Below, piece by piece: positions 39,078-64,000 of a stretch of DNA of 64,000 nt. The notes beneath the pieces are model-generated. The model saw only the letters and a list, made by a program, of their open reading frames with translations, did no database searches and was not told where the DNA came from. The DNA is from Escherichia coli (lineage in GTDB: Bacteria > Pseudomonadota > Gammaproteobacteria > Enterobacterales > Enterobacteriaceae): the NCBI RefSeq assembly GCF_048403405.1, contig NZ_CP183129.1. One strand, written 5' to 3'. Positions within the stretch are counted from its first letter, which is position 1, and every line of letters starts with the position of its first letter. The position numbers and the translations under genes were made by a program.

Positions 39078-39088
39078 GAGTAACTCCG

Positions 39089-39817: not shown

Positions 39818-39828
39818 TGAGGATTGTC

Positions 39829-40940: not shown

Positions 40941-40963
40941 AATAATACCGTTCTCTTTAAAAA

Positions 40964-41359: not shown

Positions 41360-41440
41360 ATGACTGATTGCCGATACCTTATTAAACGGGTCATCAAAAT
41401 CATCATTGCTGTTTTACAGCTGATCCTTCTGTTCTTATAA
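41360..41440 (+). CDS. shoB: Small hydrophobic toxic peptide of the shoB-ohsC type I toxin-antitoxin locus, 26 aa (MTDCRYLIKRVIKIIIAVLQLILLFL)
   Basis: ATGACTGATTGCCGATACCTTATTAAACGGGTCATCAAAATCATCATTGCTGTTTTACAGCTGATCCTTCTGTTCTTATAA read directly; below the ORF-track size cutoff; location between acpS and yfhL. Confidence 0.8.
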   Translation: MTDCRYLIKRVIKIIIAVLQLILLFL

Positions 41441-41634
41441 CATAAGGAAACGTACTTAAGGCGCGTCAGGTTAACCAGCCAGGCGCGCCTTTAATAATTA
41501 TAAATAAGTGCTTATACAGATAGTGTTATCATTCATGAAATAATTGATATTTATGATCACATCACGAAAATAAATATAAGAACCTGAAGGCTCACACTAT
41601 AAAGTCAACAATAGTCTACTCCAGGAGCAGAATA

Positions 41635-41931
<297 letters not shown>

Positions 41932-41950
41932 TTATACGCGCATTCTTTAC

Positions 41951-42799: not shown

Positions 42800-43007
42800 A
42801 TCTTTCCTCGCGATGAAATAGTGGCGACAACAGGCAATATGAGACAAACGCGAGTGAATTTTATATTCCATTGCCGCTAATTTCCATGAATTAAAAATTC
42901 CAGTTAGCCATGATGCGGTCGATTGTTGCCGGAAAAGTGATGATCTATCTGTTAGGCTATGTAGTAGCGAAAATTAATCAGGATGTTTCAGTCCAGAGGA
43001 GTATGGT

Positions 43008-43643
43008 TTGGCAACTCACGAGCGTCGTGTGGTGTTTTTTGACTTAGATGGAACATTGCATCAGCAGGATATGTTCGGCAGTTTTTTGCGTTATTTACTG
43101 CGGCGCCAACCGCTGAATGCGTTGCTTGTCCTGCCGTTGTTGCCGATCATAGCCATTGCGTTATTGATAAAAGGCCGTGCGGCACGCTGGCCGATGAGTC
43201 TGCTTCTGTGGGGATGCACTTTTGGTCACAATGAAGCGCGTTTGCAGGCGTTGCAGGCCGATTTCGTACGCTGGTTTCGTGACAATGTTACCGCCTTTCC
43301 GCTGGTTCAGGAGCGATTAACCACCTACCTGTTAAGTTCCGATGCTGATATCTGGTTGATTACCGGCTCTCCGCAGCCGCTGGTTGAAGCGGTTTATTTC
43401 GATACGCCCTGGCTGCCGCGGGTTAATCTTATCGCCAGTCAGATTCAGCGTGGCTATGGTGGTTGGGTATTGACGATGCGTTGCCTCGGGCATGAGAAGG
43501 TCGCGCAACTGGAGCGTAAAATCGGCACGCCACTGCGGTTGTACAGTGGCTATAGCGACAGTAATCAGGACAACCCGCTGCTTTATTTCTGTCAGCATCG
43601 TTGGCGAGTAACCCCGCGCGGTGAACTCCAGCAACTGGAATAG
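43008..43643 (+). CDS. pgpC: Phosphatidylglycerophosphatase C (HAD-like), 211 aa
   Basis: ORF 43008..43643; VFFDLDGTL HAD motif with a transmembrane segment. Confidence 0.88.
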   Translation: MATHERRVVFFDLDGTLHQQDMFGSFLRYLLRRQPLNALLVLPLLPIIAIALLIKGRAARWPMSLLLWGCTFGHNEARLQALQADFVRWFRDNVTAFPLVQERLTTYLLSSDADIWLITGSPQPLVEAVYFDTPWLPRVNLIASQIQRGYGGWVLTMRCLGHEKVAQLERKIGTPLRLYSGYSDSNQDNPLLYFCQHRWRVTPRGELQQLE

Positions 43644-43655
43644 AGTAAAGCATAG

Positions 43656-45757
<2,102 letters not shown>

Positions 45758-45922
45758 TTAGTTAATTCTCTGTGTCGTGCGCGTCCCAGCTTGAAAAAAC
45801 GTAATAATAGTGAAAGGTTTACTCATAAATGAGCGGCATTTTGCGTAAACCTGCGCCAGTTGGCAACTTATTACAGCCATTGGCGGCACGCGTTGCTAAT
45901 TCGCGATGGTGATTTTATTTCC

Positions 45923-45938
45923 ACGCAAACGGTTTCGT
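45923..45938. promoter_or_regulatory. PurR box (ACGCAAACGGTTTCGT) upstream of purL
   Basis: 16-bp near-palindrome matching the PurR operator consensus about 80 bp upstream of the purL start. Confidence 0.65.
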
Positions 45939-46014
45939 CAGCGCATCAGATTCTTTATAATGACGCCCGTTTCCCCCCCTTGGGTACACCGAAAGCTTAG
46001 AAGACGAGAGACTT

Positions 46015-49000
46015 ATGATGGAAATTCTGCGTGGTTCGCCTGCATTGTCGGCATTCCGAATCAACAAACTGCTGGCACGTTTTCAGGCTGCCAGGCTCCC
46101 GGTTCACACTATTTACGCCGAGTATGTCCATTTTGCTGACCTCAATGCGCCGTTAAACGATGATGAGCACGCACAACTTGAACGCCTGCTGAAATATGGC
46201 CCGGCACTCGCCAGCCACGCCCCGCAAGGCAAACTCCTGCTGGTGACCCCGCGTCCTGGCACCATCTCTCCCTGGTCTTCGAAAGCGACCGATATTGCCC
46301 ATAACTGCGGGCTGCAACAGGTAAACCGTCTTGAGCGCGGCGTGGCTTACTATATAGAAGCCGGTACGCTGACCAATGAACAATGGCAGCAGGTTACCGC
46401 TGAACTGCACGACCGCATGATGGAAACGGTCTTTTTTGCTTTAGATGATGCAGAGCAGCTGTTTGCACACCATCAACCGACTCCGGTCACCAGCGTTGAT
46501 TTGCTGGGGTTGGGCCGTCAGGCGCTAATCGACGCTAACCTGCGTCTTGGCCTGGCACTGGCGGAAGATGAAATTGACTATTTGCAGGATGCTTTCACAA
46601 AGCTTGGTCGTAACCCGAACGACATCGAACTGTATATGTTTGCCCAGGCGAACTCCGAGCACTGCCGCCACAAAATTTTTAACGCCGACTGGGTTATCGA
46701 TGGTGAACAGCAGCCGAAATCGCTGTTTAAGATGATCAAAAACACCTTCGAAACTACGCCGGATCACGTTCTCTCTGCTTATAAAGATAACGCCGCCGTC
46801 ATGGAAGGGTCTGAAGTGGGCCGCTACTTTGCTGACCACGAAACGGGCCGCTACGATTTCCATCAGGAACCGGCGCATATTCTGATGAAAGTTGAAACCC
46901 ACAACCACCCGACGGCGATTTCTCCGTGGCCGGGCGCGGCGACCGGTTCCGGCGGTGAAATCCGCGATGAAGGTGCCACCGGACGCGGCGCGAAGCCGAA
47001 AGCTGGTTTGGTTGGTTTCTCCGTTTCCAACCTGCGAATTCCTGGCTTCGAACAGCCGTGGGAAGAAGATTTCGGTAAGCCTGAGCGCATTGTCACCGCG
47101 CTGGACATCATGACCGAAGGCCCGCTGGGTGGCGCGGCATTTAACAACGAATTTGGTCGTCCGGCACTGAACGGCTACTTCCGTACTTATGAAGAAAAAG
47201 TGAACAGCCACAATGGCGAAGAGCTGCGCGGTTATCACAAACCGATCATGCTGGCGGGCGGGATCGGCAACATTCGTGCCGATCACGTACAAAAAGGCGA
47301 GATCAACGTTGGTGCGAAGCTGGTCGTTCTCGGCGGCCCGGCAATGAACATCGGTCTTGGCGGCGGCGCGGCGTCTTCCATGGCGTCTGGTCAGTCTGAT
47401 GCCGACCTCGACTTCGCTTCCGTACAGCGCGACAACCCGGAGATGGAGCGTCGCTGCCAGGAAGTGATCGACCGTTGCTGGCAGCTTGGTGATGCCAACC
47501 CAATCCTGTTTATCCACGACGTTGGCGCAGGCGGTCTTTCTAACGCCATGCCGGAACTGGTGAGCGACGGCGGGCGCGGCGGTAAATTCGAACTGCGCGA
47601 TATCCTGAGCGACGAACCGGGCATGAGCCCGCTGGAAATCTGGTGTAACGAATCCCAGGAACGCTACGTGCTGGCGGTTGCTGCCGATCAGTTACCGCTG
47701 TTTGACGAACTGTGTAAGCGTGAGCGCGCGCCATACGCGGTGATTGGTGAAGCGACCGAAGAACTGCATCTTTCTTTGCACGATCGTCATTTTGATAATC
47801 AGCCGATCGATCTGCCGCTGGACGTCCTGCTTGGTAAAACGCCGAAGATGACCCGCGAAGTACAAACGCTGAAAGCGAAGGGTGATGCGCTGGTTCGTGA
47901 AGGGATTACCATTGCTGACGCGGTGAAACGCGTGCTGCACCTGCCGACCGTGGCGGAGAAAACTTTCCTGGTGACCATTGGTGACCGCAGCGTAACCGGC
48001 ATGGTAGCGCGCGATCAGATGGTGGGTCCGTGGCAGGTGCCGGTCGCTAACTGCGCGGTCACTACCGCCAGCCTCGATAGCTACTACGGCGAAGCGATGG
48101 CGATTGGCGAGCGTGCGCCGGTTGCGCTGCTGGATTTCGCCGCCTCTGCCCGTCTGGCGGTCGGTGAAGCGTTAACCAATATTGCCGCAACACAGATTGG
48201 CGATATCAAACGCATTAAACTTTCCGCCAACTGGATGGCGGCGGCAGGCCACCCTGGTGAAGATGCGGGCCTGTATGAAGCCGTTAAAGCTGTGGGCGAA
48301 GAACTTTGTCCGGCGCTGGGCCTGACGATCCCGGTGGGTAAAGACTCTATGTCGATGAAAACCCGCTGGCAGGAAGGTAACGAAGAGCGCGAAATGACGT
48401 CGCCGCTGTCGCTGGTGATTTCTGCATTTGCCCGCGTGGAAGATGTGCGTCACACCATCACGCCGCAGCTTTCTACCGAAGATAACGCATTACTGCTGAT
48501 TGAACTGGGCAAAGGCAATAACGCGCTGGGCGCAACGGCGCTGGCGCAGGTTTATCGTCAGCTTGGCGACAAACCGGCAGATGTACGCGATGTCGCGCAA
48601 CTGAAAGGTTTCTATGACGCGGTTCAGGCGCTGGTAGCACAGTGTAAGCTGCTCGCGTACCACGACCGCTCTGATGGCGGCCTGCTGGTAACGCTGGCGG
48701 AAATGGCCTTTGCTGGTCATTGCGGCATTGACGCGGATATCGCCACTCTGGGTGACGATCGCCTGGCGGCGTTGTTTAACGAAGAACTGGGTGCGGTGAT
48801 TCAGGTTCGTGCCGCTGACCGTGAAGCAGTTGAAGCGGTACTGGCACAGCATGGGCTTGCGGATTGCGTCCATTATGTTGGGCAGGCGGTTTCCGGTGAC
48901 CGTTTTGTGATTACCGCCAACGGGCAGACTGTATTCAGCGAAAGCCGCACCACGTTGCGTGTCTGGTGGGCAGAAACTACCTGGCAGATGCAGCGCCTGC

Positions 49001-49902
49001 GTGACAACCCGGAGTGTGCCGACCAGGAGCACCAGGCGAAATCAAACGACGCCGATCCGGGCCTGAATGTAAAACTGTCGTTCGATATCAACGAAGATGT
49101 GGCAGCACCGTATATTGCCACTGGCGCACGTCCGAAAGTTGCTGTGCTGCGTGAGCAGGGCGTGAACTCGCATGTTGAAATGGCGGCAGCTTTCCACCGT
49201 GCAGGCTTCGATGCTATCGACGTGCATATGAGCGACCTGCTGGCTGGACGCACGGGCCTGGAGGATTTCCACGCCCTGGTCGCGTGCGGTGGTTTCTCCT
49301 ACGGTGATGTGCTGGGTGCCGGTGAAGGTTGGGCGAAGTCTATCCTGTTCAATGACCGTGTACGCGATGAGTTTGCAACCTTCTTCCATCGTCCGCAAAC
49401 GCTGGCGCTGGGGGTATGTAACGGTTGCCAGATGATGTCTAACCTGCGCGAACTGATCCCAGGTAGTGAGTTGTGGCCACGTTTTGTGCGTAACACCTCC
49501 GATCGCTTTGAAGCGCGTTTCAGCCTGGTTGAAGTGACCCAAAGCCCGTCACTGCTATTGCAGGGGATGGTGGGCTCGCAAATGCCGATTGCTGTGTCTC
49601 ACGGTGAAGGGCGTGTGGAAGTGCGTGATGCGGCGCATCTGGCGGCACTGGAAAGCAAAGGGCTGGTGGCACTGCGCTATGTCGATAACTTCGGCAAAGT
49701 CACTGAAACCTACCCGGCTAACCCGAACGGTTCTCCGAACGGTATTACGGCGGTCACGACTGAAAGTGGTCGAGTCACCATTATGATGCCGCACCCGGAA
49801 CGTGTTTTCCGTACTGTCAGCAACTCCTGGCATCCGGAAAACTGGGGCGAGGATGGGCCGTGGATGCGTATTTTCCGCAATGCACGTAAGCAGTTGGGGT
49901 AA
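46015..49902 (+). CDS. purL: Phosphoribosylformylglycinamidine synthase (large single-chain form), 1295 aa
   Basis: ORF 46015..49902; translation; C-terminal glutamine amidotransferase GVCNGCQM motif. Confidence 0.96.
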
Positions 49903-49959
49903 GCCGTCAACCCATTGGTTTTGCAGCCGGATGAGGCATTAAGCACCAACTACTATTAT

Positions 49960-49986
49960 AAGCTCCCAACTTCGGGAGCTTTTTTG
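49960..49986 (+). terminator. Intrinsic terminator after purL (AAGCTCCCAA-CTTC-GGGAGCTT plus T-run)
   Basis: Inverted repeat with T-run read directly. Confidence 0.75.
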
Positions 49987-50004
49987 TGTCTGTAAATCAC
50001 GACA
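49987..50004. promoter_or_regulatory. GlrR-type enhancer site 1 (TGTC-N10-GACA)
   Basis: Exact TGTC-N10-GACA read directly upstream of the glmY sigma-54 promoter. Confidence 0.6.
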
Positions 50005-50019
50005 ATGGGTGGTTTGCCG

Positions 50020-50037
50020 TGTCGCTTTCTGGCGACA
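50020..50037. promoter_or_regulatory. GlrR-type enhancer site 2 (TGTC-N10-GACA)
   Basis: Exact TGTC-N10-GACA read directly. Confidence 0.6.
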
Positions 50038-50082
50038 TTTAACTCATTGATTTTAATATTATCTAATAAGTTTATCTTAAGT

Positions 50083-50100
50083 TGTCTCTTTTTAGCGACA
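50083..50100. promoter_or_regulatory. GlrR-type enhancer site 3 (TGTC-N10-GACA)
   Basis: Exact TGTC-N10-GACA read directly, about 100 bp upstream of the -24/-12 element. Confidence 0.6.
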
Positions 50101-50189
50101 CAGTGGCTGATTTACATTCAAATAGCGAAGAAGCCATAAATCCCTCAAAGCAGCATATAATCAGTACGTTACCAAACTATTTTCTTTAT

Positions 50190-50205
50190 TGGCACAGTTA
50201 CTGCA
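50190..50205 (+). promoter_or_regulatory. Sigma-54 promoter (-24 TGGCAC, -12 CTGCA) of glmY
   Basis: TGGCACagttaCTGCA with correct GG-to-GC spacing; predicted start about 12 nt downstream coincides with the glmY 5' end. Confidence 0.75.
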
Positions 50206-50216
50206 TAATAGTAACC

Positions 50217-50401
50217 AGTGGCTCATTCACCGACTTATGTCAGCCCCTTCGGGACGTGCTACATAAAATACGAATGACGCACAACAAGGTGCCTGCCGTC
50301 CAACTTCTGATATCAGCGTAGCTATATCAACCATCGGGCGAAACGTCGAGTTAGGCACCGCCTTATTCCATAACAAAGCCGGGTAATTCCCGGCTTTGTT
50401 G
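50217..50401 (+). ncRNA. glmY: Small regulatory RNA GlmY (controls glmS via GlmZ/RapZ)
   Basis: Begins AGTGGCTCATTCACCGACTTATGTCAGCCCCTTCGGGACG, ends at intrinsic terminator AAAGCCGGGTAATTCCCGGCTTTGTTGT; position between purL and glrK; ends approximate. Confidence 0.8.
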
Positions 50402-50458
50402 TATCTGAACTTCCCCTCGGTTAGCATCAGGCTATTCGCGTCTGACGAGAGTAACACC

Positions 50459-51886
50459 TTGAAACGCTGGCCCGTTTTTCCCCGCTCATTACGACAACTG
50501 GTAATGCTGGCATTTTTGCTGATTCTGCTGCCCCTGTTGGTGCTGGCATGGCAAGCCTGGCAAAGCCTGAATGCACTTAGCGATCAGGCAGCGCTGGTTA
50601 ACCGCACTACGCTTATTGATGCCCGGCGCAGTGAAGCGATGACCAACGCGGCACTGGAGATGGAGCGCAGCTACCGTCAGTACTGCGTGCTGGACGACCC
50701 TACGCTTGCGAAGGTTTATCAAAGCCAGCGCAAGCGTTACAGCGAAATGCTTGATGCCCACGCAGGCGTGCTGCCGGACGATAAACTCTACCAGGCATTA
50801 CGTCAGGATTTGAACAATCTGGCTCAACTTCAGTGTAACAACAGTGGTCCTGATGCCGCCGCCGCCGCGCGTCTTGAAGCCTTTGCCAGTGCCAATACCG
50901 AAATGGTGCAGGCCACGCGCACAGTAGTGTTCTCTCGTGGGCAGCAACTTCAGCGTGAAATCGCCGAACGTGGGCAATATTTTGGTTGGCAATCGCTGGT
51001 GCTATTTCTGGTGAGTCTGGTGATGGTGCTACTTTTCACGAGGATGATTATCGGTCCGGTGAAAAATATCGAGCGCATGATCAACCGGCTGGGGGAAGGG
51101 CGTTCTCTGGGCAATAGTGTCTCGTTCAGTGGACCGAGCGAGTTACGCTCGGTTGGGCAACGTATTCTTTGGTTAAGTGAGCGCCTGTCATGGCTGGAAT
51201 CCCAACGCCATCAATTTTTAAGACATTTATCTCATGAATTAAAAACGCCACTGGCGAGTATGCGCGAGGGCACTGAATTACTGGCTGACCAGGTTGTCGG
51301 GCCGCTTACGCCAGAGCAAAAAGAGGTGGTGAGCATTCTTGATAGCAGCAGCCGCAATTTGCAAAAGTTGATCGAACAACTGCTTGATTACAACCGTAAA
51401 CAGGCGGACGGTGCGGTGGAACTGGAGAATGTTGAGTTAGCGCCACTGGTGGAAATGGTGGTTTCTGCTCATAGCCTGCCCGCGCGGGCTAAAATGATGC
51501 ATACCGATGTCGATCTCAAAGCAACAGCTTGCCTGGCGGAGCCAATGCTGCTGATGAGCGTACTGGATAATCTTTACTCCAATGCGGTGCACTACGGGGC
51601 TGAATCCGGTAACATTTGCCTTCGCAGCAGTTTACATGGCGCGCGGGTTTATATTGATGTCATCAATACAGGAACACCCATTCCGCAAGAGGAACGCGCC
51701 ATGATCTTCGAACCCTTTTTTCAGGGAAGCCACCAGCGAAAAGGGGCGGTGAAGGGCAGCGGTCTGGGATTAAGCATTGCCAGGGATTGTATTCGCCGTA
51801 TGCAAGGGGAACTGTATCTGGTCGACGAGAGCGGGCAAGACGTTTGCTTCCGCATTGAATTGCCGTCGTCGAAAAACACGAAATAA
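50459..51886 (+). CDS. glrK: Sensor histidine kinase GlrK (QseE), 475 aa
   Basis: ORF track 50396..51886; start placed at TTG 50459 (MKRWPVFPRS) from remembered K-12 length; HAMP-like region, H-box SHELKTPL and ATPase domain. Confidence 0.88.
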   Translation: MKRWPVFPRSLRQLVMLAFLLILLPLLVLAWQAWQSLNALSDQAALVNRTTLIDARRSEAMTNAALEMERSYRQYCVLDDPTLAKVYQSQRKRYSEMLDAHAGVLPDDKLYQALRQDLNNLAQLQCNNSGPDAAAAARLEAFASANTEMVQATRTVVFSRGQQLQREIAERGQYFGWQSLVLFLVSLVMVLLFTRMIIGPVKNIERMINRLGEGRSLGNSVSFSGPSELRSVGQRILWLSERLSWLESQRHQFLRHLSHELKTPLASMREGTELLADQVVGPLTPEQKEVVSILDSSSRNLQKLIEQLLDYNRKQADGAVELENVELAPLVEMVVSAHSLPARAKMMHTDVDLKATACLAEPMLLMSVLDNLYSNAVHYGAESGNICLRSSLHGARVYIDVINTGTPIPQEERAMIFEPFFQGSHQRKGAVKGSGLGLSIARDCIRRMQGELYLVDESGQDVCFRIELPSSKNTK

Positions 51887-52050
51887 TGCTAACAGCCTAT
51901 CCCATCAGGCTATTTTATTTGCCAGTTTGGCCCTGGGCAGTGCTCGAAATCCTCACGTACGACATGTACGCTCCGGTTTCTCCGCGCTGTCCATGTCCAG
52001 ACTGTCTGTAACAATTACGCCCACTGGGAAAGGCGCTAAGTCTGGTGAAT

Positions 52051-52764
52051 ATGCGACACATTTTTCAACGATTATTGCCCCGACGGCTGTGGCTGGCAGG
52101 GCTGCCATGTCTGGCATTGCTGGGTTGTGTGCAGAGTCACAATAAACCAGCCATTGATACGCCAGCAGAAGAAAAAATTCCGGTTTATCAACTGGCTGAC
52201 TATCTTTCTACTGAATGTAGCGACATCTGGGCGCTGCAAGGTAAATCAACCGAAACCAATCCGCTTTACTGGCTGCGGGCGATGGATTGTGCTGATCGTT
52301 TAATGCCTGCGCAGTCGCGTCAGCAAGCTCGCCAATATGACGACGGCAGCTGGCAAAAGACCTTTAAACAAGGGATTTTGCTCGCCGACGCCAAAATTAC
52401 GCCGTATGAGCGCCGCCAGCTGGTCGCGCGCATTGATGCGCTAAGTACCGAGATCCCGGCACAGGTTCGCCCTCTGTATCAACTCTGGCGCGACGGTCAG
52501 GCGCTGCAACTGCAACTGGCGGAAGAGCGCCAACGCTACGGCAAACTCCAGCAATCCAGCGACAGCGAGCTGGATACATTGCGCCAGCAACATCACGTTC
52601 TACAGCAGCAACTGGAACTCACCACCCGCAAGCTGGAAAACCTGACCGATATTGAACGCCAGCTCTCGACCCGCAAACCGGCTGGAAATTTCTCGCCGGA
52701 TACGCCGCACGAGGGTGAAAAGCCCGCGCCATCCATCCATGAGGTCACTCCTGATGAGCCATAA
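52051..52764 (+). CDS. yfhG: Lipoprotein YfhG (QseG), accessory to the GlrK/GlrR system, 237 aa
   Basis: ORF track 52045..52764; ATG at 52051 (MRHIFQRLLP); lipobox LLGCVQ. Confidence 0.85.
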   Translation: MRHIFQRLLPRRLWLAGLPCLALLGCVQSHNKPAIDTPAEEKIPVYQLADYLSTECSDIWALQGKSTETNPLYWLRAMDCADRLMPAQSRQQARQYDDGSWQKTFKQGILLADAKITPYERRQLVARIDALSTEIPAQVRPLYQLWRDGQALQLQLAEERQRYGKLQQSSDSELDTLRQQHHVLQQQLELTTRKLENLTDIERQLSTRKPAGNFSPDTPHEGEKPAPSIHEVTPDEP

Positions 52765-54088
52765 ACCTGCGCATTTATTATTGGTCGATGACGATCCGGG
52801 ATTGCTGAAACTGCTTGGCCTGCGCCTGATCAGCGAAGGCTACAGTGTGGTCACGGCGGAAAGTGGCGCTGAAGGATTACGGGTACTGAATCGCGAAAAA
52901 GTAGATTTAGTTATCAGCGACCTGCGGATGGATGAAATGGACGGTATGCAGCTGTTTGCTGAAATTCAGAAAGTGCAGCCTGGAATGCCAGTAATTATTC
53001 TTACCGCGCATGGTTCTATTCCCGATGCCGTTGCTGCAACACAGCAGGGAGTGTTCAGTTTCCTCACCAAGCCTGTCGATAAAGACGCGCTATATCAGGC
53101 AATTGACGATGCGCTGGAACAATCCGCGCCAGCCACCGATGAACGCTGGCGCGAGGCGATTGTCACCCGCAGCCCGCTGATGCTGCGTTTGCTGGAACAG
53201 GCGCGGCTGGTGGCGCAATCAGACGTCAGCGTTTTGATTAATGGCCAGAGCGGCACCGGGAAAGAGATTTTCGCCCAGGCTATCCACAACGCCAGCCCGC
53301 GTAACAGCAAGCCGTTTATTGCTATTAACTGTGGTGCATTGCCCGAGCAATTGCTGGAGTCGGAACTGTTTGGTCATGCGCGTGGCGCGTTTACTGGCGC
53401 TGTCAGCAATCGCGAAGGTTTATTCCAGGCGGCGGAAGGCGGTACGCTATTTCTCGATGAGATTGGCGATATGCCCGCACCGTTGCAGGTTAAACTGCTG
53501 CGCGTGTTGCAGGAGCGTAAAGTGCGCCCGCTGGGCAGTAACCGCGATATTGATATCGACGTGCGGATTATTTCTGCCACTCACCGCGACCTGCCAAAAG
53601 CGATGGCGCGCGGGGAATTCCGCGAAGATCTCTATTACCGCCTCAACGTTGTCAGCCTGAAAATTCCGGCACTGGCGGAGCGTACAGAAGACATTCCGCT
53701 ACTGGCAAATCACCTGTTGCGCCAGGCGGCAGAGCGACATAAACCGTTTGTCCGCGCGTTCTCCACCGATGCGATGAAACGCCTGATGACCGCGAGCTGG
53801 CCGGGTAATGTGCGCCAGTTGGTCAACGTGATTGAACAGTGCGTGGCGCTGACCTCATCTCCGGTGATTAGCGATGCATTAGTAGAGCAGGCGCTGGAGG
53901 GCGAAAACACGGCGCTGCCAACCTTTGTTGAAGCACGTAATCAGTTTGAACTCAACTATTTGCGTAAGCTGCTGCAAATCACCAAAGGCAACGTCACCCA
54001 CGCGGCGAGAATGGCGGGGCGCAACCGGACAGAATTTTATAAACTGCTTTCCCGACACGAGCTGGATGCAAACGATTTCAAGGAATGA
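52754..54088 (+). CDS. glrR: Sigma-54 dependent response regulator GlrR (QseF), 444 aa
   Basis: ORF track 52652..54088; start moved to ATG 52754 ([16 protein letters not shown]), overlapping yfhG by 11 nt; receiver domain, AAA+ GESGTGKE and C-terminal HTH. Confidence 0.92.
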
Positions 54089-54112
54089 ATTGGCGTTATG
54101 TGTTACGTTTAG

Positions 54113-54487
<375 letters not shown>

Positions 54488-54500
54488 ACCGCGTCAAGGA

Positions 54501-54524
54501 TTGCCGGATGTTTCCATCCGGCAA
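54501..54524. terminator. Hairpin TTGCCGGATG-TTTCC-CATCCGGCAA between convergent glnB and hmp
   Basis: Inverted repeat read directly in the 44-bp gap between the two stop codons. Confidence 0.65.
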
Positions 54525-54531
54525 CATCAAA

Positions 54532-55722
54532 TCACAGCACCTTATGCGGACCAAAGCATTCGTAATGAATGTTTTCCTGCTTCACGCCCAGATCCACTAA
54601 CTGTTTCGCGGCAAACTGCATGAAGCCAACCGGGCCGCAGAGATAGAACTGCATTGTCGGATCGCTGAACGCACCTTCCAGTTTGCTCAAATCCATCAGA
54701 CCTTCGCTATCAAACTGACCTTTAGAGCGATCGGCTTCGCTCGGCTGACGATACCAGGTGTGCGCGGTAAAGCGCGGCAGTGACAGCCCCAGTTCCTTAA
54801 CTTCATCAGCAAAGGCGTGAACATCGCCATTTTCTGCCGCATGGAACCAGTTCACTTGTGCTGTGTGGCCTGCTTTTGCCAGTGTGTCGAGCATTGCCAG
54901 CATTGGCGTTTGGCCGACACCAGCAGAGATTAACGTCACCGGCGTGTCATCTGCGACAGCCATAAAGAAATCACCTGCCGGAGCGACCAGTTTCACGACA
55001 TCGCCAACATTGGCGTGATTGTGCAGCCAGTTGGATACCTGCCCACCCTCTTCGCGTTTCACCGCAATACGATAGCCTTTGCCATCCGGTTTGCGAGTCA
55101 AAGAGTACTGACGAATTTCCTGATGCGGGAAACCTTCCGGCTTCAGCCAGACGCCGAGATATTGCCCTGGACGGTATTCTGCCACTGCGCCACCGTCGAC
55201 CGGCTCCAGTTCGAAGCTGGTGATAAGCGCGCTGCGCGGTGTTTTAGCCACAATGCGGAAATCGCGAGTACCTTCCCAGCCACCGGCTTTGCTGGCGTTT
55301 TCGTTATAGATTTCCGCCTCGCGATTGATAAATACATTAGCCAGTACGCCATAGGCTTTACCCCATGCGTCCAGCACTTCCTGGCCCGGGCTGAACATTT
55401 CGTCCAGCGTCGCCAACAGGTGTTCACCGACAATGTTGTACTGTTCCGGTTTGATCTGGAAACTGGTGTGCTTCTGCGCGATTTTTTCTACCGCTGGCAG
55501 CAGCGCAGGCAGGTTTTCAATATTACTGGCGTAGGCGGCAATGGCGTTAAACAGGGCTTCACGTTGATCGCCATTACGCTGGTTACTCATGTTAAAAATT
55601 TCTTTGAGTTCTGGGTTATGAGTAAACATACGGTCGTAGAAATGGGCGGTTAACTTTGGCCCTGTTTCCACCAGTAAAGGGATGGTGGCTTTTACTGTAG
55701 CGATGGTTTGAGCGTCAAGCAT
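54532..55722 (-). CDS. hmp: Flavohemoglobin (nitric oxide dioxygenase), 396 aa
   Basis: ORF 54532..55722 minus; globin N-terminus plus FAD/NAD reductase domain. Confidence 0.95.
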
Positions 55723-55749
55723 ATGGTCTTCCTTTTTTTTGCATCTTAA

Positions 55750-55772
55750 TTGATGTATCTCAAATACATCTT
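55750..55772. promoter_or_regulatory. Candidate NsrR operator in hmp promoter (TTGATGTATCTCAAATACATCTT; inverted repeat GATGTAT..ATACATC)
   Basis: Inverted repeat read directly about 30 bp upstream of the hmp start; NsrR repression of hmp is established. Confidence 0.6.
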
Positions 55773-56050
55773 ATAAAAAATAGCCCTGCAATGTAAATGG
55801 TTCTTTGGTGTTTTTCAGAAAGAATGTGATGAAGTGAAAAATTTGCATCACAAACCTGAAAAGAAATCCGTTTCCGGTTGCAAGCTCTTTATTCTCCAAA
55901 GCCTTGCGCAGCCTGAAGGTAATCGTTTGCGTAAATTCCTTTGTCAAGACCTGTTATCGCACAATGATTCGGTTATACTGTTCGCCGTTGTCCAACAGGA
56001 CCGCCTATAAAGGCCAAAAATTTTATTGTTAGCTGAGTCAGGAGATGCGG

Positions 56051-57304
56051 ATGTTAAAGCGTGAAATGAACATTGCCGATTATGATGCCGAACTGTGGCA
56101 GGCTATGGAGCAGGAAAAAGTACGTCAGGAAGAGCACATCGAACTGATCGCCTCCGAAAACTACACCAGCCCGCGCGTAATGCAGGCGCAGGGTTCTCAG
56201 CTGACCAACAAATATGCTGAAGGTTATCCGGGCAAACGCTACTACGGCGGTTGCGAGTATGTTGATATCGTTGAACAACTGGCGATCGATCGTGCGAAAG
56301 AACTGTTCGGCGCTGACTACGCTAACGTCCAGCCGCACTCCGGCTCCCAGGCTAACTTTGCGGTGTACACCGCGCTGCTGGAACCAGGCGATACCGTTCT
56401 GGGTATGAACCTGGCGCATGGCGGTCACCTGACTCACGGTTCTCCGGTTAACTTCTCCGGTAAACTGTATAACATCGTTCCTTACGGTATCGATGCTACC
56501 GGTCATATCGACTACGCCGATCTGGAAAAACAAGCCAAAGAACACAAACCGAAAATGATTATCGGTGGCTTCTCTGCATATTCCGGCGTGGTGGACTGGG
56601 CGAAAATGCGTGAAATCGCTGACAGCATCGGTGCTTACCTGTTCGTTGATATGGCGCACGTTGCGGGCCTGGTTGCTGCTGGCGTTTACCCGAACCCAGT
56701 TCCTCATGCTCACGTTGTTACTACCACCACTCACAAAACCCTGGCGGGTCCGCGCGGTGGCCTGATCCTGGCGAAAGGTGGTAGCGAAGAGCTGTACAAA
56801 AAACTGAACTCTGCCGTTTTCCCTGGTGGTCAGGGCGGTCCGTTGATGCACGTAATCGCCGGTAAAGCGGTTGCTCTGAAAGAAGCGATGGAGCCTGAGT
56901 TCAAAACTTACCAGCAGCAGGTCGCGAAAAACGCCAAAGCGATGGTAGAAGTGTTCCTGGAACGCGGCTACAAAGTGGTTTCTGGTGGTACTGATAACCA
57001 CCTGTTCCTGGTTGATCTGGTTGATAAAAACCTGACTGGTAAAGAAGCTGACGCCGCTCTGGGCCGTGCTAACATCACCGTTAACAAAAACAGCGTACCG
57101 AACGATCCGAAGAGCCCGTTTGTGACCTCCGGTATTCGCGTGGGTACTCCGGCGATTACCCGTCGTAGCTTTAAAGAAGCCGAAGCGAAAGAACTGGCTG
57201 GCTGGATGTGTGACGTGCTGGACAGCATCAATGATGAAGCGGTTATTGAGCGCATCAAAGGTAAAGTTCTCGACATCTGTGCACGTTACCCGGTTTACGC
57301 ATAA
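56051..57304 (+). CDS. glyA: Serine hydroxymethyltransferase, 417 aa
   Basis: ORF track 56045..57304; ATG at 56051 ([12 protein letters not shown]); PLP-lysine motif TTTTHKTL. Confidence 0.96.
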
Positions 57305-57324
57305 GCGAAACGGTTAATCTGTTG

Positions 57325-57353
57325 AAAAAAGGCTTCCTTCGGGAAGCCTTTCT
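57325..57353. terminator. Bidirectional terminator between glyA and yphH (AAAAAAGGCTTCC-TTCG-GGAAGCCTTTCT)
   Basis: Inverted repeat flanked by A-run and T-run. Confidence 0.75.
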
Positions 57354-57367
57354 ACGTTATCGCGCCA

Positions 57368-58561
57368 TCAAATCTGTCGTAACTGCGCCTCAACATACAA
57401 ATAGCCAATCCCCAGCACCTGTTGTGCGCGGCTTAATTGCCCAAAGCCAATTTTCGTCTCTTTCACGCTCGGTCCTTCGTCGCGGTCGAACGGGTTAAAT
57501 CCCGTCTGGCGAATAATGGTATTAAGCCAGTGCTCACCAAAGGCACAACTGCGACCGTACAACCAAATCTGATTAATATTGAGGATGTTGAGGAAGTTAT
57601 ACAGACTCAAACCAATGGCATTGGCAGAGCGATCAACCCAGCTGGTGATCCACGGTTCTCCACTCTGCCAGGCAGCGATTAACTGCGCTGTTGTCAGTTT
57701 TTCAGGATCAAGCTGAGTATTAACCGGTTGTGATTTTAGCCATACCCGCGCCTGTTTTTTTAATGCGCTTAACGAGGCGACGGTTTCCAGGCAACCATAA
57801 CGTCCGCAGTCGCAGACGACGCCATCCGGATTAACGATGGTGTGACCAATCTGTCCGCTACCATACAAACAGCCGCGATAAATTTGCTCGTTAATCACGA
57901 ACGACGAGCCAATGCCGTAATCAACGTTGATCACGCAGAAATCCCGTTCCTGCGAATTATTTTGCCATTTCTCCGCCAGCGCCAGCATCACGCAGTCATT
58001 ATCGACCATCACCCGAATGCCGAGCTTCTCTTCCAGCAGATACTTTACCTCAACCGGCGTTGTCCACGGCGCTTGCGGCATGGTTTGCGACACGCCGGTC
58101 ACCGGATCAACCTGACCGTGGATTGCCAGCGCCAGGTTGATGGTACGGTCCGGCCACAATTTACGGTGGCGATGCCAGCATTTTTCGATTTCGGACAGCA
58201 GCGCCTGCGGCGTCGGTGCATCAATCTGTAAATACTCAAATTCACCTTTCGGACTTAAACAGGCGTTAGCGACCTGACACTCAATACTGGTGGGCGTCAC
58301 GTTCAGGCACAGCGTCCAGTCACCTTCCGGCGCAATCAGCCATGTACCGCTACTATGCCCGCGCGTCTGGCTTTCATCGTCGATATTCACCACCCGTTTT
58401 TCGCTTTCCAGTTCCTGCAAAATATTACTGACCGCCGGAATCGAAATTTGCGCCAGCCGGGCCAGGGTTGATTTATTGGCGCGCTTTTGCCGGTACAGCA
58501 GTTCCAGAATCACGCATTTGTTATGGTGGCGAATCTGTTGATTATTAATGCAGGCTCTCAT
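57368..58561 (-). CDS. yphH: ROK/NagC-family transcriptional regulator, 397 aa
   Basis: ORF track 57368..58567 minus; start moved to the internal Met (MRACINNQQIRHHNKCV); N-terminal HTH plus ROK sugar-kinase-like domain. Confidence 0.85.
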   Translation of the reverse strand: MRACINNQQIRHHNKCVILELLYRQKRANKSTLARLAQISIPAVSNILQELESEKRVVNIDDESQTRGHSSGTWLIAPEGDWTLCLNVTPTSIECQVANACLSPKGEFEYLQIDAPTPQALLSEIEKCWHRHRKLWPDRTINLALAIHGQVDPVTGVSQTMPQAPWTTPVEVKYLLEEKLGIRVMVDNDCVMLALAEKWQNNSQERDFCVINVDYGIGSSFVINEQIYRGCLYGSGQIGHTIVNPDGVVCDCGRYGCLETVASLSALKKQARVWLKSQPVNTQLDPEKLTTAQLIAAWQSGEPWITSWVDRSANAIGLSLYNFLNILNINQIWLYGRSCAFGEHWLNTIIRQTGFNPFDRDEGPSVKETKIGFGQLSRAQQVLGIGYLYVEAQLRQI

Positions 58562-58678
58562 CTTCACTAAACCTTGTTTAGTTAATTGCGTGATTATTCC
58601 GCGAAAACATTGCCAGATTGTTCAATACACTGCCACAAATCTTTTAATTCAGTATGTCTTGTTAATATTGAGGGCACC

Positions 58679-61600
58679 ATGACTCCAGTAAAAGTGTGGC
58701 AAGAGCGCGTTGAGATCCCGACCTATGAAACCGGGCCGCAGGATATACATCCCATGTTCCTGGAAAATCGCGTTTATCAGGGATCGTCCGGCGCGGTTTA
58801 TCCCTACGGCGTGACCGATACGCTGAGCGAGCAGAAAACCCTGAAATCCTGGCAGGCGGTGTGGCTGGAAAACGACTACATCAAAGTGATGATCCTGCCG
58901 GAACTGGGCGGTCGGGTGCATCGCGCGTGGGATAAAGTGAAACAGCGCGATTTTGTCTATCACAATGAAGTCATTAAACCGGCGCTGGTGGGGCTGCTGG
59001 GACCGTGGATCTCCGGCGGGATTGAGTTTAACTGGCCGCAACACCATCGCCCGACCACCTTTATGCCCGTTGATTTCACCCTCGAAGCCCATGAAGACGG
59101 CGCACAGACGGTGTGGGTAGGCGAAACGGAGCCGATGCATGGTTTACAGGTGATGACAGGTTTCACCCTGCGTCCTGACCGGGCGGCGCTGGAAATCGCC
59201 AGCCGCGTCTATAACGGCAACGCCACGCCGCGTCATTTCTTGTGGTGGGCCAACCCGGCAGTGAAAGGGGGTGAAGGGCATCAGAGCGTTTTCCCACCGG
59301 ATGTGACTGCGGTGTTTGATCACGGCAAACGGGCCGTCTCTGCTTTCCCCATCGCCACCGGCACTTACTACAAAGTGGACTACTCCGCTGGAGTGGACAT
59401 TTCTCGCTATAAAAATGTGCCTGTTCCAACCTCATATATGGCTGAAAAATCACAGTACGATTTTGTTGGCGCGTGGTGTCACGATGAAGATGGCGGTTTG
59501 CTGCACGTTGCCAACCACCATATTGCGCCAGGTAAAAAACAGTGGAGTTGGGGACACAGTGAATTTGGCCAGGCGTGGGATAAGAGTCTGACCGACAATA
59601 ACGGCCCGTATATCGAACTGATGACCGGTATTTTTGCCGATAACCAGCCTGATTTTACCTGGCTTGATGCGTACGAAGAGAAGCGTTTCGAGCAGTATTT
59701 CCTGCCTTATCATTCTCTGGGCATGGTGCAAAATGCCTCCCGCGATGCGGTGATAAAACTCCAGCGTAGTGAGCGGGGGATTGAGTGGGGGCTGTATGCC
59801 ATCTCTCCGTTGAAAGGATACCGTCTGGCGATCCGCGAAATCGGCAAATGCAACGCGTTACTCGATGATGCCGTGGCCCTGACACCAGCGACCGCCATCC
59901 AGGGCGTGTTGCACGGTATCAATCCTGACAGACTGACCATTGAACTCTCCGATGCCGACGGCAATATTGTACTGAGTTATCAGGAACATCAGCCGCAAGA
60001 GTTGCCGTTGCCGGACGTCGCCAAAGCGCCACTGGCAGCACAAGACATTACCAGTACAGATGAAGCCTGGTTTATCGGTCAGCATCTGGAGCAATATCAT
60101 CACGCCAGCCGTTCACCGTTCGATTACTACCTGCGCGGCGTGGCGCTGGATCCGCTGGATTATCGCTGTAACCTGGCGCTGGCGATGCTGGAATATAACC
60201 GCGCCGATTTCCCGCAAGCGGTGGCGTATGCCACTCAGGCGCTGAAACGCGCACATGCGCTGAACAAAAATCCGCAGTGCGGACAGGCGAGTTTGATTCG
60301 CGCCAGTGCTTACGAACGTCAGGGACAATATCAACAAGCCGAAGAGGATTTCTGGCGTGCGGTCTGGAGCGGCAACAGTAAAGCCGGAGGCTATTATGGT
60401 CTGGCACGACTGGCGGCGCGTAATGGTAACTTCGACGCGGGTCTGGATTTTTGCCAACAAAGTCTTCGCGCCTGCCCAACCAATCAGGAAGTGCTTTGCC
60501 TGCATAATCTGCTGCTGGTGTTAAGTGGTCGTCAGGACAACGCGCGTTTGCAGCGCGAGAAACTGCTGCGCGATTATCCGCTGAACGCCACTCTGTGGTG
60601 GCTGAACTGGTTCGATGGTCGTAGCGAATCAGCTCTCGCGCAGTGGCGCGGTCTGTGTCAGGGACGCGACGTTAACGCCCTGATGACCGCCGGGCAACTG
60701 ATTAACTGGGGAATGCCCACCCTGGCGGCAGAGATGCTGAACGCACTGGACTGCCAGCGCACGCTGCCGCTTTACCTGCAAGCCAGCTTGCTGCCGAAAG
60801 CCGAACGTGGCGAACTGGTCGCAAAAGCCATTGATGTCTTCCCGCAGTTTGTCCGTTTCCCGAATACGCTGGAAGAAGTGGCGGCGCTGGAGAGTATTGA
60901 AGAGTGCTGGTTTGCCCGTCATTTATTGGCCTGCTTCTACTACAACAAGCGTAGCTACGGCAAAGCCATTGCCTTATGGCAACGTTGCGTAGAGATGTCG
61001 CCGGAGTTTGCCGACGGCTGGCGCGGGTTAGCGATCCATGCGTGGAATAAGCAACACGATTATGAGCTGGCCGCGCGTTATCTTGATAATGCTTATCAGC
61101 TTGCGCCGCAGGATGCACGTCTGCTTTTCGAACGGGATTTGCTGGATAAGTTAAGTGGAGCCACACCGGAGAAACGACTGGCGCGTCTGGAAAATAATCT
61201 GGAAATTGCGCTGAAACGCGACGACATGACCGCAGAACTGCTCAATTTGTGGCATCTCACGGGTCAGGCAGACAAAGCGGCGGACATTCTCGCCACGCGC
61301 AAATTCCACCCGTGGGAAGGCGGGGAAGGGAAGATCACCAGTCAGTTTATCCTCAACCAGTTATTACGCGCCTGGCAGCATCTTGATGCCAGAGAGCCGC
61401 AGCAGGCCAGCGAACTGCTTCATGCCGCGCTGCATTATCCGGAGAATTTAAGCGAAGGCCGTTTACCGGGGCAAACTGATAACGACATCTGGTTCTGGCA
61501 GGCGATATGCGCCAACGCGCAGGGCGATGAAACTGAAGCGACGCGTTGTTTACGTCTGGCGGCGACTGGCGATCGCACCATTAACATTCACAGTTATTAC

Positions 61601-61960
61601 AACGATCAGCCGGTTGATTATCTCTTCTGGCAAGGAATGGCGCTGCGACTGCTGGGTGAACAGCAAACCGCACAGCAACTGTTTAGTGAAATGAAACAGT
61701 GGGCGCAAGAGATGGCGAAAACCAGTATTGAGGCGGATTTCTTTGCTGTTTCACAACCTGACCTGTTATCGCTGTATGGCGATTTACAACAGCAGCATAA
61801 AGAAAAATGCCTGATGGTGGCGATGCTGGCGTCCGCGGGACTCGGGGAGGTTGCGCACTATGAATCTGCTCGCGCTGAATTGACGGCGATTAATCCGGCC
61901 TGGCCGAAAGCGGCATTATTCACCACTGTGATGCCTTTTATTTTTAACCGCGTTCACTAA
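58679..61960 (+). CDS. yphG: Large uncharacterised protein YphG (N-terminal domain of unknown function plus TPR-like C-terminal repeats), about 1093 aa
   Basis: ORF track 58586..61960; start moved to ATG 58679 (MTPVKVWQERVEIPTY); translation. Confidence 0.85.
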   Translation: MTPVKVWQERVEIPTYETGPQDIHPMFLENRVYQGSSGAVYPYGVTDTLSEQKTLKSWQAVWLENDYIKVMILPELGGRVHRAWDKVKQRDFVYHNEVIKPALVGLLGPWISGGIEFNWPQHHRPTTFMPVDFTLEAHEDGAQTVWVGETEPMHGLQVMTGFTLRPDRAALEIASRVYNGNATPRHFLWWANPAVKGGEGHQSVFPPDVTAVFDHGKRAVSAFPIATGTYYKVDYSAGVDISRYKNVPVPTSYMAEKSQYDFVGAWCHDEDGGLLHVANHHIAPGKKQWSWGHSEFGQAWDKSLTDNNGPYIELMTGIFADNQPDFTWLDAYEEKRFEQYFLPYHSLGMVQNASRDAVIKLQRSERGIEWGLYAISPLKGYRLAIREIGKCNALLDDAVALTPATAIQGVLHGINPDRLTIELSDADGNIVLSYQEHQPQELPLPDVAKAPLAAQDITSTDEAWFIGQHLEQYHHASRSPFDYYLRGVALDPLDYRCNLALAMLEYNRADFPQAVAYATQALKRAHALNKNPQCGQASLIRASAYERQGQYQQAEEDFWRAVWSGNSKAGGYYGLARLAARNGNFDAGLDFCQQSLRACPTNQEVLCLHNLLLVLSGRQDNARLQREKLLRDYPLNATLWWLNWFDGRSESALAQWRGLCQGRDVNALMTAGQLINWGMPTLAAEMLNALDCQRTLPLYLQASLLPKAERGELVAKAIDVFPQFVRFPNTLEEVAALESIEECWFARHLLACFYYNKRSYGKAIALWQRCVEMSPEFADGWRGLAIHAWNKQHDYELAARYLDNAYQLAPQDARLLFERDLLDKLSGATPEKRLARLENNLEIALKRDDMTAELLNLWHLTGQADKAADILATRKFHPWEGGEGKITSQFILNQLLRAWQHLDAREPQQASELLHAALHYPENLSEGRLPGQTDNDIWFWQAICANAQGDETEATRCLRLAATGDRTINIHSYYNDQPVDYLFWQGMALRLLGEQQTAQQLFSEMKQWAQEMAKTSIEADFFAVSQPDLLSLYGDLQQQHKEKCLMVAMLASAGLGEVAHYESARAELTAINPAWPKAALFTTVMPFIFNRVH

Positions 61961-62056
61961 ACCCTATTAACTGTAATATTTGAGCGGCACGCGCTGCCGC
62001 TCATCACAAAATAATTAGAATAAGCCGTTGTAAATAAAAACCCTACAGGAGGCACT

Positions 62057-63040
62057 ATGCCTAAAAAAATGAGAACAACCCGTAATCTATTATTAATGGC
62101 TACGCTATTAGGTAGCGCTCTATTTGCCAGGGCAGCGGATAAAGAAATGACCATTGGTGCAATATACCTTGATACCCAGGGATATTACGCTGGCGTGCGT
62201 CAGGGCGTTCAGGATGCGGCAAAAGATTCTTCAGTACAGGTACAGTTAATTGAAACTAACGCCCAGGGCGATATTTCGAAAGAAAGTACTTTTGTAGATA
62301 CCCTCGTGGCGCGTAATGTCGATGCCATTATTTTATCGGCAGTATCTGAAAATGGCAGTAGCCGTACCGTTCGTCGCGCCAGTGAAGCGGGTATTCCGGT
62401 GATTTGCTACAACACCTGTATTAATCAAAAGGGTGTCGATAAATATGTCTCGGCATATCTGGTTGGTGACCCGCTGGAATTTGGTAAAAAACTGGGTAAC
62501 GCTGCCGCCGATTATTTTATTGCCAACAAAATTGACCAGCCGAAAATTGCCGTCATCAATTGCGAAGCCTTTGAAGTTTGTGTGCAACGACGTAAAGGGT
62601 TTGAAGAAGTATTAAAAGCCCGCGTTCCCGGCGCGCAAATTGTCGCTAATCAGGAAGGGACTGTTTTAGATAAAGCGATTTCCGTTGGTGAAAAACTAAT
62701 TATCTCCACGTCGGATCTCAACGCCATTATGGGGGAATCGGGCGGTGCGACACTCGGCGCGGTAAAAGCGGTACGTAATCAAAATCAGGCCGGAAAAATT
62801 GCTGTTTTCGGTTCGGATATGACCACTGAAATTGCTCAGGAGCTGGAAAACAATCAGGTGCTGAAAGCGGTGGTGGATATTTCCGGTAAGAAAATGGGCA
62901 ATGCTGTTTTCGCGCAAACTTTGAAGGTTATCAATAAACAAGCCGACGGTGAAAAAGTGATTCAGGTGCCAATCGATCTCTATACCAAAACGGAAGACGG
63001 TAAACAGTGGCTGGCAACGCACGTTGATGGTCTGCCCTAA
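62057..63040 (+). CDS. yphF: ABC transporter periplasmic sugar-binding protein (LacI/RbsB-type fold), 327 aa
   Basis: ORF 62057..63040; signal peptide MPKKMRTTRNLLLMATLLGSALFARA. Confidence 0.88.
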   Translation: MPKKMRTTRNLLLMATLLGSALFARAADKEMTIGAIYLDTQGYYAGVRQGVQDAAKDSSVQVQLIETNAQGDISKESTFVDTLVARNVDAIILSAVSENGSSRTVRRASEAGIPVICYNTCINQKGVDKYVSAYLVGDPLEFGKKLGNAAADYFIANKIDQPKIAVINCEAFEVCVQRRKGFEEVLKARVPGAQIVANQEGTVLDKAISVGEKLIISTSDLNAIMGESGGATLGAVKAVRNQNQAGKIAVFGSDMTTEIAQELENNQVLKAVVDISGKKMGNAVFAQTLKVINKQADGEKVIQVPIDLYTKTEDGKQWLATHVDGLP

Positions 63041-63062
63041 TCGCTGATTCGCAGAGGTCCCT

Positions 63063-64000
63063 ATGTTCACGGCAACAGAGGCAGTCCCGGTAGCAAAAGT
63101 GGTGGCAGGAAATAAGCGTTATCCCGGCGTCGTTGCGTTGGATAACGTTAACTTCACGCTCAATAAAGGCGAAGTTCGTGCGCTGTTAGGCAAAAACGGC
63201 GCGGGCAAATCGACCCTCATTCGAATGCTTACCGGCAGTGAACGTCCGGATAGCGGTGATATCTGGATTGGCGAGACGCGACTGGAAGGTGACGAAGCTA
63301 CGTTGACTCGCCGTGCCGCTGAACTGGGGGTTCGTGCGGTTTATCAGGAGTTAAGTCTGGTGGAGGGACTGACGGTGGCGGAAAACCTCTGCCTCGGTCA
63401 GTGGCCCCGCCGCAACGGCATGATTGATTACCTGCAAATGGCGCAGGATGCCCAACGTTGCTTACAGGCGCTGGGCGTTGACGTTAGCCCTGAACAACTT
63501 GTTTCAACGCTAAGCCCGGCACAAAAGCAACTGGTGGAAATTGCGCGGGTGATGAAGGGCGAGCCGCGCGTGGTCATTCTTGATGAACCTACCAGTTCGC
63601 TTGCCAGTGCGGAAGTTGAACTGGTGATCAGTGCGGTTAAAAAGATGTCGGCACTGGGCGTGGCGGTGATTTATGTCAGCCACCGGATGGAAGAAATCCG
63701 CCGCATTGCCTCCTGTGCCACCGTTATGCGCGATGGTCAGGTGGCGGGCGATGTGATGCTCGAAAACACCTCCACGCATCATATTGTGTCGCTAATGCTC
63801 GGGCGCGATCACGTTGATATTGCGCCGGTTGCCCCTCAGGAAATTGTCGATCAGGCTGTGCTGGTAGTCCGTGCGTTACGCCATAAGCCCAAGCTGGAGG
63901 ATATCAGCTTTACGCTACGTCGTGGCGAAGTACTCGGCATTGCTGGCCTGCTGGGGGCAGGGCGCAGTGAATTGCTGAAGGCGATTGTTGGGCTGGAGAC
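63063..64000 (+). CDS. yphE: ABC transporter ATP-binding protein (sugar importer type), N-terminal part; continues beyond window end
   Basis: ATG 63063 (MFTATEAVPVAKVV); Walker A GKNGAGKST; frame open to the window edge, so absent from the ORF track. Confidence 0.85.
   Translation, partial: MFTATEAVPVAKVVAGNKRYPGVVALDNVNFTLNKGEVRALLGKNGAGKSTLIRMLTGSERPDSGDIWIGETRLEGDEATLTRRAAELGVRAVYQELSLVEGLTVAENLCLGQWPRRNGMIDYLQMAQDAQRCLQALGVDVSPEQLVSTLSPAQKQLVEIARVMKGEPRVVILDEPTSSLASAEVELVISAVKKMSALGVAVIYVSHRMEEIRRIASCATVMRDGQVAGDVMLENTSTHHIVSLMLGRDHVDIAPVAPQEIVDQAVLVVRALRHKPKLEDISFTLRRGEVLGIAGLLGAGRSELLKAIVGLE

Follow-up and report, generated by a model that had tools for sequence, protein, structure and literature searches.

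The 328-bp spacer between the divergent genes hmp and glyA (55723..56050; 61% A+T) in the analyzed stretch of Escherichia coli DNA (64 kb, in the following referred to as the window) represents, with a probability of roughly 0.9, the classical, well-studied and already known hmp-glyA divergent control region of E. coli, with an NsrR operator at the predicted hmp promoter and with MetR and PurR elements in the same spacer. The findings on this spacer all agree with the published picture, and the sole addition is a natural polymorphism within the operator. The region is among the best-characterized divergent promoters of E. coli, and the importance of the results beyond annotation is small; their useful output is the exact coordinates of each element in the spacer of the window (Table 1). 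Binding and action of NsrR, FNR, MetR and PurR at this locus are taken from the literature, whereas sequences, coordinates, motif matches, conservation and allele frequencies were read here.

Table 1. Coordinates of the genes, regulatory elements and conserved blocks of the hmp-glyA region (positions in the window).
Feature	Position	Strand	Basis and remarks
hmp (hmpA) CDS	54532..55722	minus	ORF, 396 aa, NO-inducible flavohaemoprotein
hmp Shine-Dalgarno AGGAAGA	55727..55733	minus	sequence reading; 5 nt before ATG
T8 run (A8 in the hmp 5' leader)	55733..55740		alignments; length-polymorphic
additional NsrR half-site-like 11-mer AAGATGCAAAA	55737..55747	minus	direct repeat CATCTTA, 25-bp spacing; weak
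NsrR operator, 11-1-11 inverted repeat TTGATGTATCTCAAATACATCTT	55750..55772		23 bp; PWM, consensus and published hmp site
FNR-like box TTGAG-ATAC-ATCAA (hmp strand), TTGAGATACATCAA	55750..55763		9/10 match to TTGAT-N4-ATCAA
conserved block, NsrR site and -10	55754..55774		80-spacer alignment
predicted hmp sigma-70 promoter	55768..55797	minus	consensus scan: -35 TTTACA (55797..55792), 18-bp spacer, -10 TAAGAT (55773..55768)
conserved block, hmp -35 (TGTAAA on the plus strand)	55792..55797		80-spacer alignment
MetR box 1 (hmp-proximal) TGAAAAATTTGCA	55835..55847		7/8 match to TGAA-N5-TTCA
candidate MetR box 2 (glyA-proximal) TGAAAAGAAATCC	55857..55869		left half perfect, right half 2/4; 6/8 in total
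PurR operator ACGCAAACGATTACCT	55917..55932	minus	2 mismatches to the 16-bp PUR box ACGCAAACGTTTTCNT
conserved block near the PurR operator	55917..55935		80-spacer alignment
predicted glyA core promoter	55940..55979	plus	conservation and consensus scan; TATACT (55974..55979) likely -10
two 4-bp hairpins, start of the glyA leader	55990..56014	plus	GUCC-AACA-GGAC (55990..56001), GCCU-AUAA-AGGC (56003..56014)
conserved block, glyA ribosome binding	56028..56050		80-spacer alignment
glyA Shine-Dalgarno AGGAG	56040..56044	plus	6 nt before ATG at 56051; within the invariant block 56028..56050
glyA CDS	56051..57304	plus	ORF, 417 aa, serine hydroxymethyltransferase

Regarding the flanking genes, the RefSeq genome TUM14771, which is 100% identical to the window, annotates hmpA as "NO-inducible flavohemoprotein" and glyA as "serine hydroxymethyltransferase". 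The RefSeq start of glyA corresponds to the N-terminus MLKREMN; an in-frame ATG further upstream, at 56045, abuts the Shine-Dalgarno sequence. The length of 328 bp given for the spacer in the original prediction was reproduced by measurement. In the set of complete E. coli genomes (n = 5,426), the spacer is present as a single copy in 5,425, and nsrR, a core gene located outside the window, is full length in an equal number (5,425/5,426). Three differences separate the spacer from that of a K-12-type genome, namely T8/T7 at 55733..55740 (T7 is also found in O55:H7 DEC5B), A/G at 55766 and C/T at 55909. Just six complete E. coli genomes out of 5,426, namely TUM14771, 4621, MS 69-1, OX030728, GN02461 and TUM1226, showed 100% identity with the last 20 kb of the window (44000..64000, purL to yphG), whereas all remaining ones were at most 98.8% identical, which indicates that either the lineage of the window or its haplotype in this region is uncommon.

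The operator, read on the hmp strand as AAGATGTATTT-G-AGATACATCAA, contains the core dyad GATGTATCTCAAATACATC (GATGTAT-N5-ATACATC, 55752..55770), whose 7-nt arms (55752-58 and 55764-70) are 100% complementary and separated by 5 nt. An inverted repeat had been predicted to lie within 55750..55772, and this range turned out to coincide exactly with the 23-bp 11-1-11 site. A palindromic position weight matrix (PWM) for NsrR was built from 25 11-1-11 sites of strain CFT073 (Table 4 of PMC5320621), with the hmp site left out. The 23-mer of the window obtained a score of 16.95 bits (P = 7.7e-7 per position); the number of positions expected to reach this score by chance is 0.05 for 64 kb and, given the spacer's own composition, 0.003 for the spacer. 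The NsrR motif scan, which had been proposed beforehand as a check, thus ranked the hmp operator as the second-best position of the 64-kb window. The 23-mer differs by a single base from TTGATGTATCTCAAATGCATCTT upstream of hmp in CFT073, which is a ChIP-seq-positive NsrR 11-1-11 site (PMC5320621, Table 4), even though the CFT073 peak at hmp is modest (32, compared with 247-523 for ytfE, hcp, grxD and hycB; PMC5320621). Regarding the comparative-genomics consensus gATGyAT-N5-ATrCATc (PMC1274295), GATGTAT-CTCAA-ATACATC agrees at 14 of 14 specified positions. The operator furthermore overlaps the -10 hexamer TAAGAT of the sole consensus promoter predicted on the hmp strand, a placing expected of a repressor; taken together, the ChIP-seq-positive counterpart, the consensus match and this overlap bear out the NsrR-type site that had been predicted beside the hmp start. 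A further half-site-like 11-mer, AAGATGCAAAA, follows the promoter-proximal half-site at a distance of 25 bp on the downstream side and is not conserved outside Escherichia; it is listed as 'hmp (19) AAGATGCAAAA' with a PatSer score of 5.0 in PMC5320621.

The best NsrR PWM position of the window (23.8 bits) was AACATTCATTTGAAGTAAAACTT at 14335..14357. It overlaps the start codon of orfA, an IS3-family transposase gene (14331..15679) between the 5S rRNA gene and kgtP; according to the TUM14771 annotation, the element at 14331..15679 is an IS1397-family pseudogene. When reverse-complemented, AACATTCATTTGAAGTAAAACTT is identical to the CFT073 c0118/c0233 NsrR sites, the ChIP-seq peaks of which reach 218 and 164, compared with 32 for hmp (PMC5320621).

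For comparison across the family, a search with the Hmp protein, restricted to one genome per species, yielded 80 Enterobacteriaceae loci. In all 78 loci with enough flanking sequence glyA is divergent from hmp, with a spacer of 275-349 bp; these 78 spacers were aligned with the spacer of the window and a K-12-type spacer (n = 80). Of the 80 spacers, 50 matched the 19-mer consensus of NsrR perfectly and 73 with at most one mismatch (79 being readable at the site), and the site is conserved while adjacent positions vary. Upstream of hmp, the highest NsrR score had a median of 26.7 bits in the 80 orthologues, among which the Escherichia operators were the lowest-scoring ones (16.9-17.7 bits). 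The low Escherichia score appears to originate from the promoter-distal half TTGATGTATCT, which deviates from AAGATGyATTT in a way that creates the FNR-like box. A chance origin of this palindrome within AT-rich intergenic DNA, without any regulatory role, is extremely improbable. Five pairs of inverted repeats of at least 7 nt (the core dyad and four others) occur within 371 bp, the A+T content of the spacer is 61%, and a 7-nt inverted repeat by itself is no better than chance. The dyad is lifted above chance by its match to the NsrR matrix, for which only 0.003 equally high-scoring positions are expected in the spacer, and by its conservation in the orthologous spacers amid varying neighbors; the published ChIP-seq occupancy likewise argues against a chance origin.

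The promoter-distal half of the operator is shared with the FNR-like box. Matches to the FNR consensus with at most one mismatch were 2.6-fold, approximately, more frequent in the window than expected by chance (6 versus 2.3). That the inverted repeat functions as an FNR site only (TTGAG-N4-ATCAA), its resemblance to an NsrR site being incidental, is very improbable: the match to the FNR consensus at 55750..55763 is close (9/10) and repression of hmp by FNR is documented in the literature (PMC6950321, PMC1274295), but the dyad under consideration (center at 55761) is not the FNR dyad (center at 55756.5; 4.5 bp apart), and NsrR occupancy was recorded by ChIP-seq in CFT073 (PMC5320621). Moreover, the FNR box was recovered with at most one mismatch in only 12 of the 80 spacers, restricted to Escherichia and some Citrobacter, compared with 73 of 80 for the NsrR 19-mer; a limited conservation of the FNR box at hmp was likewise remarked in PMC1274295. 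The NsrR and FNR sites thus coexist, and FNR by itself fails to explain the conservation.

Another part of the window contains a perfect FNR consensus (TTGATTTAAATCAA, 25164..25177) and a one-mismatch copy (25111..25124). This pair (25111..25177) lies upstream of grcA (yfiD), whose start maps near 25285 via TUM14771, at a distance of 108-174 bp, and fits the known FNR-dependent grcA promoter.

The -35 and -10 hexamers of the predicted hmp promoter are at least 95% conserved in the 80 spacers, and the CTTCC core of the hmp Shine-Dalgarno sequence is kept in the orthologues. Judging from the position of the hexamers, transcription of hmp would start near 55761, and the NsrR operator would span approximately -12 to +12 relative to this start. 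A reading of the inverted repeat as an RNA hairpin was rejected, since a transcript starting at the dyad center would contain one arm only. Within the spacer between the -10 and -35 hexamers, positions 55781..55787 read TAGCCCT in Escherichia and TACCCCT, which matches the NarL/NarP heptamer TACYYMT, in most other genera. Inspection of this -10/-35 spacer by eye for a 7-2-7 NarL/NarP site revealed only the single heptamer-like TAGCCCT, and no such site was assigned; a NarP site upstream of hmp has been predicted for enterobacteria, without coordinates (PMC1274295).

The original prediction had also placed a glyA promoter with MetR and PurR control elements in this spacer, which is in accordance with the alignment and with the literature. 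Both MetR boxes, separated by 22 bp from center to center, are contained in a conserved 39-bp block (55834..55872; rTGAAaaATnTGCATCACAAACCTGAAAAGAAATCC), in which CTGAAAAGAAATCC at box 2 is nearly invariant among the 80 spacers. A scan of the window with the MetR consensus yielded 22 matches, compared with 28.7 expected ones, i.e., the consensus is too weak to exceed chance. The MetR assignment is therefore based on the conservation of the block and on the literature, in which two MetR sites have been described for this spacer (PMC5002191); box 2 is assigned to MetR as a candidate. Regarding PurR, 12 of the 16 positions of the operator are at least 95% conserved in the 80 spacers, and the PurR site of glyA is listed as 'confirmed' in RegulonDB (PMC3548332). 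A further conserved block (80-100% in the 80 spacers), CAAAGCCTTG at 55897..55906, is located between MetR box 2 and the PurR box.

PUR boxes were also observed at other places in the window. A box with one mismatch (ACGCAAACGGTTTCGT, 45923..45938) is located 77-92 bp upstream of the start of purL, a member of the PurR regulon. Another one with three mismatches (ATGCAAACGATTTCAA, 54066..54081) is found just upstream of glnB (start at 54149), which is listed among the genes with PurR binding sites (PMC3548332).

In the glyA core promoter, TATACT is invariant, is contained in the conserved segment TTATACTGT (55973..55981) and is the likely -10 hexamer. The assignment of the -35 hexamer is ambiguous; the invariant block TTTGTCAAGACCTGTTATC (55940..55958) contains the candidates TTGTCA (55941-46) and CTGTTA (55951-56), and either CTGTTA, with a 17-bp spacer, or a hexamer within the invariant TTGTCA block may serve as -35. 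The promoter proposed by the consensus scan (TTGTCA-16-AATGAT) was not adopted, because AATGAT (55963-68) varies between species whereas TATACT is invariant. A literature search with the sequence strings of the glyA promoter yielded no match.

When 60 distinct orthologous leaders of glyA were folded as single sequences, most of them formed the two initial hairpins, and some leaders showed two-sided changes, in which GCCU/AGGC is replaced by CCCU/AGGG, CGCC/GGCG or GCCC/GGGC. RNAalifold applied to the alignment of the glyA leaders missed both 5' hairpins because of alignment indels, whereas folding of each sequence revealed them; the hairpins may have a role in protecting the mRNA at its 5' end. 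No RNA family was detected in the spacer with Rfam (scan of the whole window and permissive scan of 55600..56200); the only hit, a mir-67 match, was dismissed as due to chance (E = 0.43, far below the threshold). Elsewhere in the window, matches reaching the Rfam gathering score (2626..50364) comprise a complete rrn operon with tRNA-Glu (9193..14203) and GlmY (50217..50364), and further ones correspond to the Phe leader, RyfD, StyR-44, AsrC, rncO and OhsC; all Rfam matches of the window are expected for this chromosomal region.

Combining the coordinates with the published action of the regulators, [4Fe-4S]-NsrR bound to the operator, from the hmp -10 hexamer to approximately +12, would block RNA polymerase; nitrosylation of the NsrR cluster by nitric oxide would cause NsrR to leave, and hmp would be transcribed. 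The FNR box within the promoter-distal half of the operator would add anaerobic repression of hmp. The central MetR boxes, with homocysteine as co-effector, would serve both genes, activating glyA and modulating hmp, and the PurR operator just upstream of the glyA core promoter would exert a modest repression by purines.

The polymorphism within the operator concerns position 55766, which is A in the window and G in K-12 and CFT073; occupancy by NsrR in vivo (ChIP-seq, CFT073; PMC5320621) and NO-dependent derepression have been published for the G allele. In K-12 and CFT073 the right arm of the core dyad reads ATGCATC and only 6 of 7 positions are paired, i.e., the perfect symmetry of the dyad is due to the minority A allele. 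Caution is thus appropriate, as the eye-catching perfect dyad is a minority state and the reference state is imperfect. The original prediction mentioned neither this minority status nor the overlapping FNR box nor the lack of significance of a bare inverted repeat. Among the 5,426 complete genomes of E. coli, 133 (about 2.5%) carry the exact 60-mer of the window around the site, with A, whereas 5,158 carry the 60-mer with G. Carriers of the A allele include UTI89, S88, APEC O1, IHE3034, UM146, NU14 and strain ST95-32, which are extra-intestinal pathogens of the ST95 group. The window does not belong to the UTI89/S88/APEC O1 group, its last 20 kb being 100% identical to only the six genomes named above, and the alignment shows the A allele on three distinct flanking haplotypes (those of the window, UTI89 and O55:H7 DEC5B), which indicates that the allele, present on at least three backgrounds, arose or was transferred more than once. 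Outside E. coli, A was found at the equivalent position in nine other species rows of the alignment (seven Citrobacter, one Intestinirhabdus and one Leclercia).

Judging from the matrix and the consensus, the change from G to A is probably near-neutral and would leave regulation essentially unchanged. The A allele scores 16.95 bits, compared with 17.75 bits for the common G allele (a cost of approximately 0.8 bit), and position 55766 is the degenerate r/y position of gATGyAT-N5-ATrCATc. At position 7 of the half-sites in the training set, the variant base (T) was found in 16 of 50 cases and the common base (C) in 31 of 50; the half-site AAGATGTATTT, which is exactly that of the window, has itself been quoted as the enterobacterial NsrR repeat unit (PMC10783083). 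Unlikely in comparison, yet of some interest as a small natural case of operator tuning in pathogenic lineages should Hmp expression indeed be shifted, is a measurable change in NsrR affinity, such that strains with the A allele would differ in their basal or induced level of Hmp. Position 55766 lies inside the operator, the change leads away from the commonest base, and a further loss of 0.8 bit could matter for the E. coli hmp operator, already the weakest of the orthologues; promoters that NsrR binds with low affinity may in part evade repression, NsrR being scarce (PMC6950321), and the A allele is concentrated in extra-intestinal pathogenic strains. The loss of 0.8 bit is nevertheless small and affects a degenerate consensus position, the partner half-site of the hmp operator already has T, and the presence of A on three E. 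coli backgrounds and in nine rows of other species is as expected for a tolerated change; because the symmetry of the dyad increases with A, an effect in either direction is conceivable. It is accordingly doubtful, though conceivable, that the variant could retune NsrR repression of the weak hmp operator and with it basal flavohaemoglobin and the tolerance of nitrosative stress in lineages with the A allele; near-neutrality is the preferred reading.

Among known systems, the hmp promoter of K-12 and CFT073 shares with the window the gene pair, the position of the operator and the 23-mer save one base, and it is identical to the window in both promoter hexamers (-10 and -35), in the additional weak half-site and in the FNR box. 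The window differs from both strains in having A instead of G at 55766, and hence the half-site AAGATGTATTT instead of AAGATGCATTT, and from K-12 in having T8 instead of T7 in the hmp leader and C instead of T at 55909. The hmp operator of Salmonella Typhimurium (AAGATGCATTTGATATACATCAT) has the same 11-1-11 architecture at the same position as in the window, whereas the bases of its spacer and of its distal half-site differ; in S. enterica subsp. arizonae, the only Salmonella spacer in the set, the FNR-like box is degraded at the equivalent position. Regarding the E. coli glyA control region with its tandem MetR sites and PurR operator (Stauffer laboratory), K-12 does not differ from the window in the core promoter, the PurR box or either MetR box; the only difference, C/T at 55909, falls 8 bp upstream of the PurR box, where conservation is poor.
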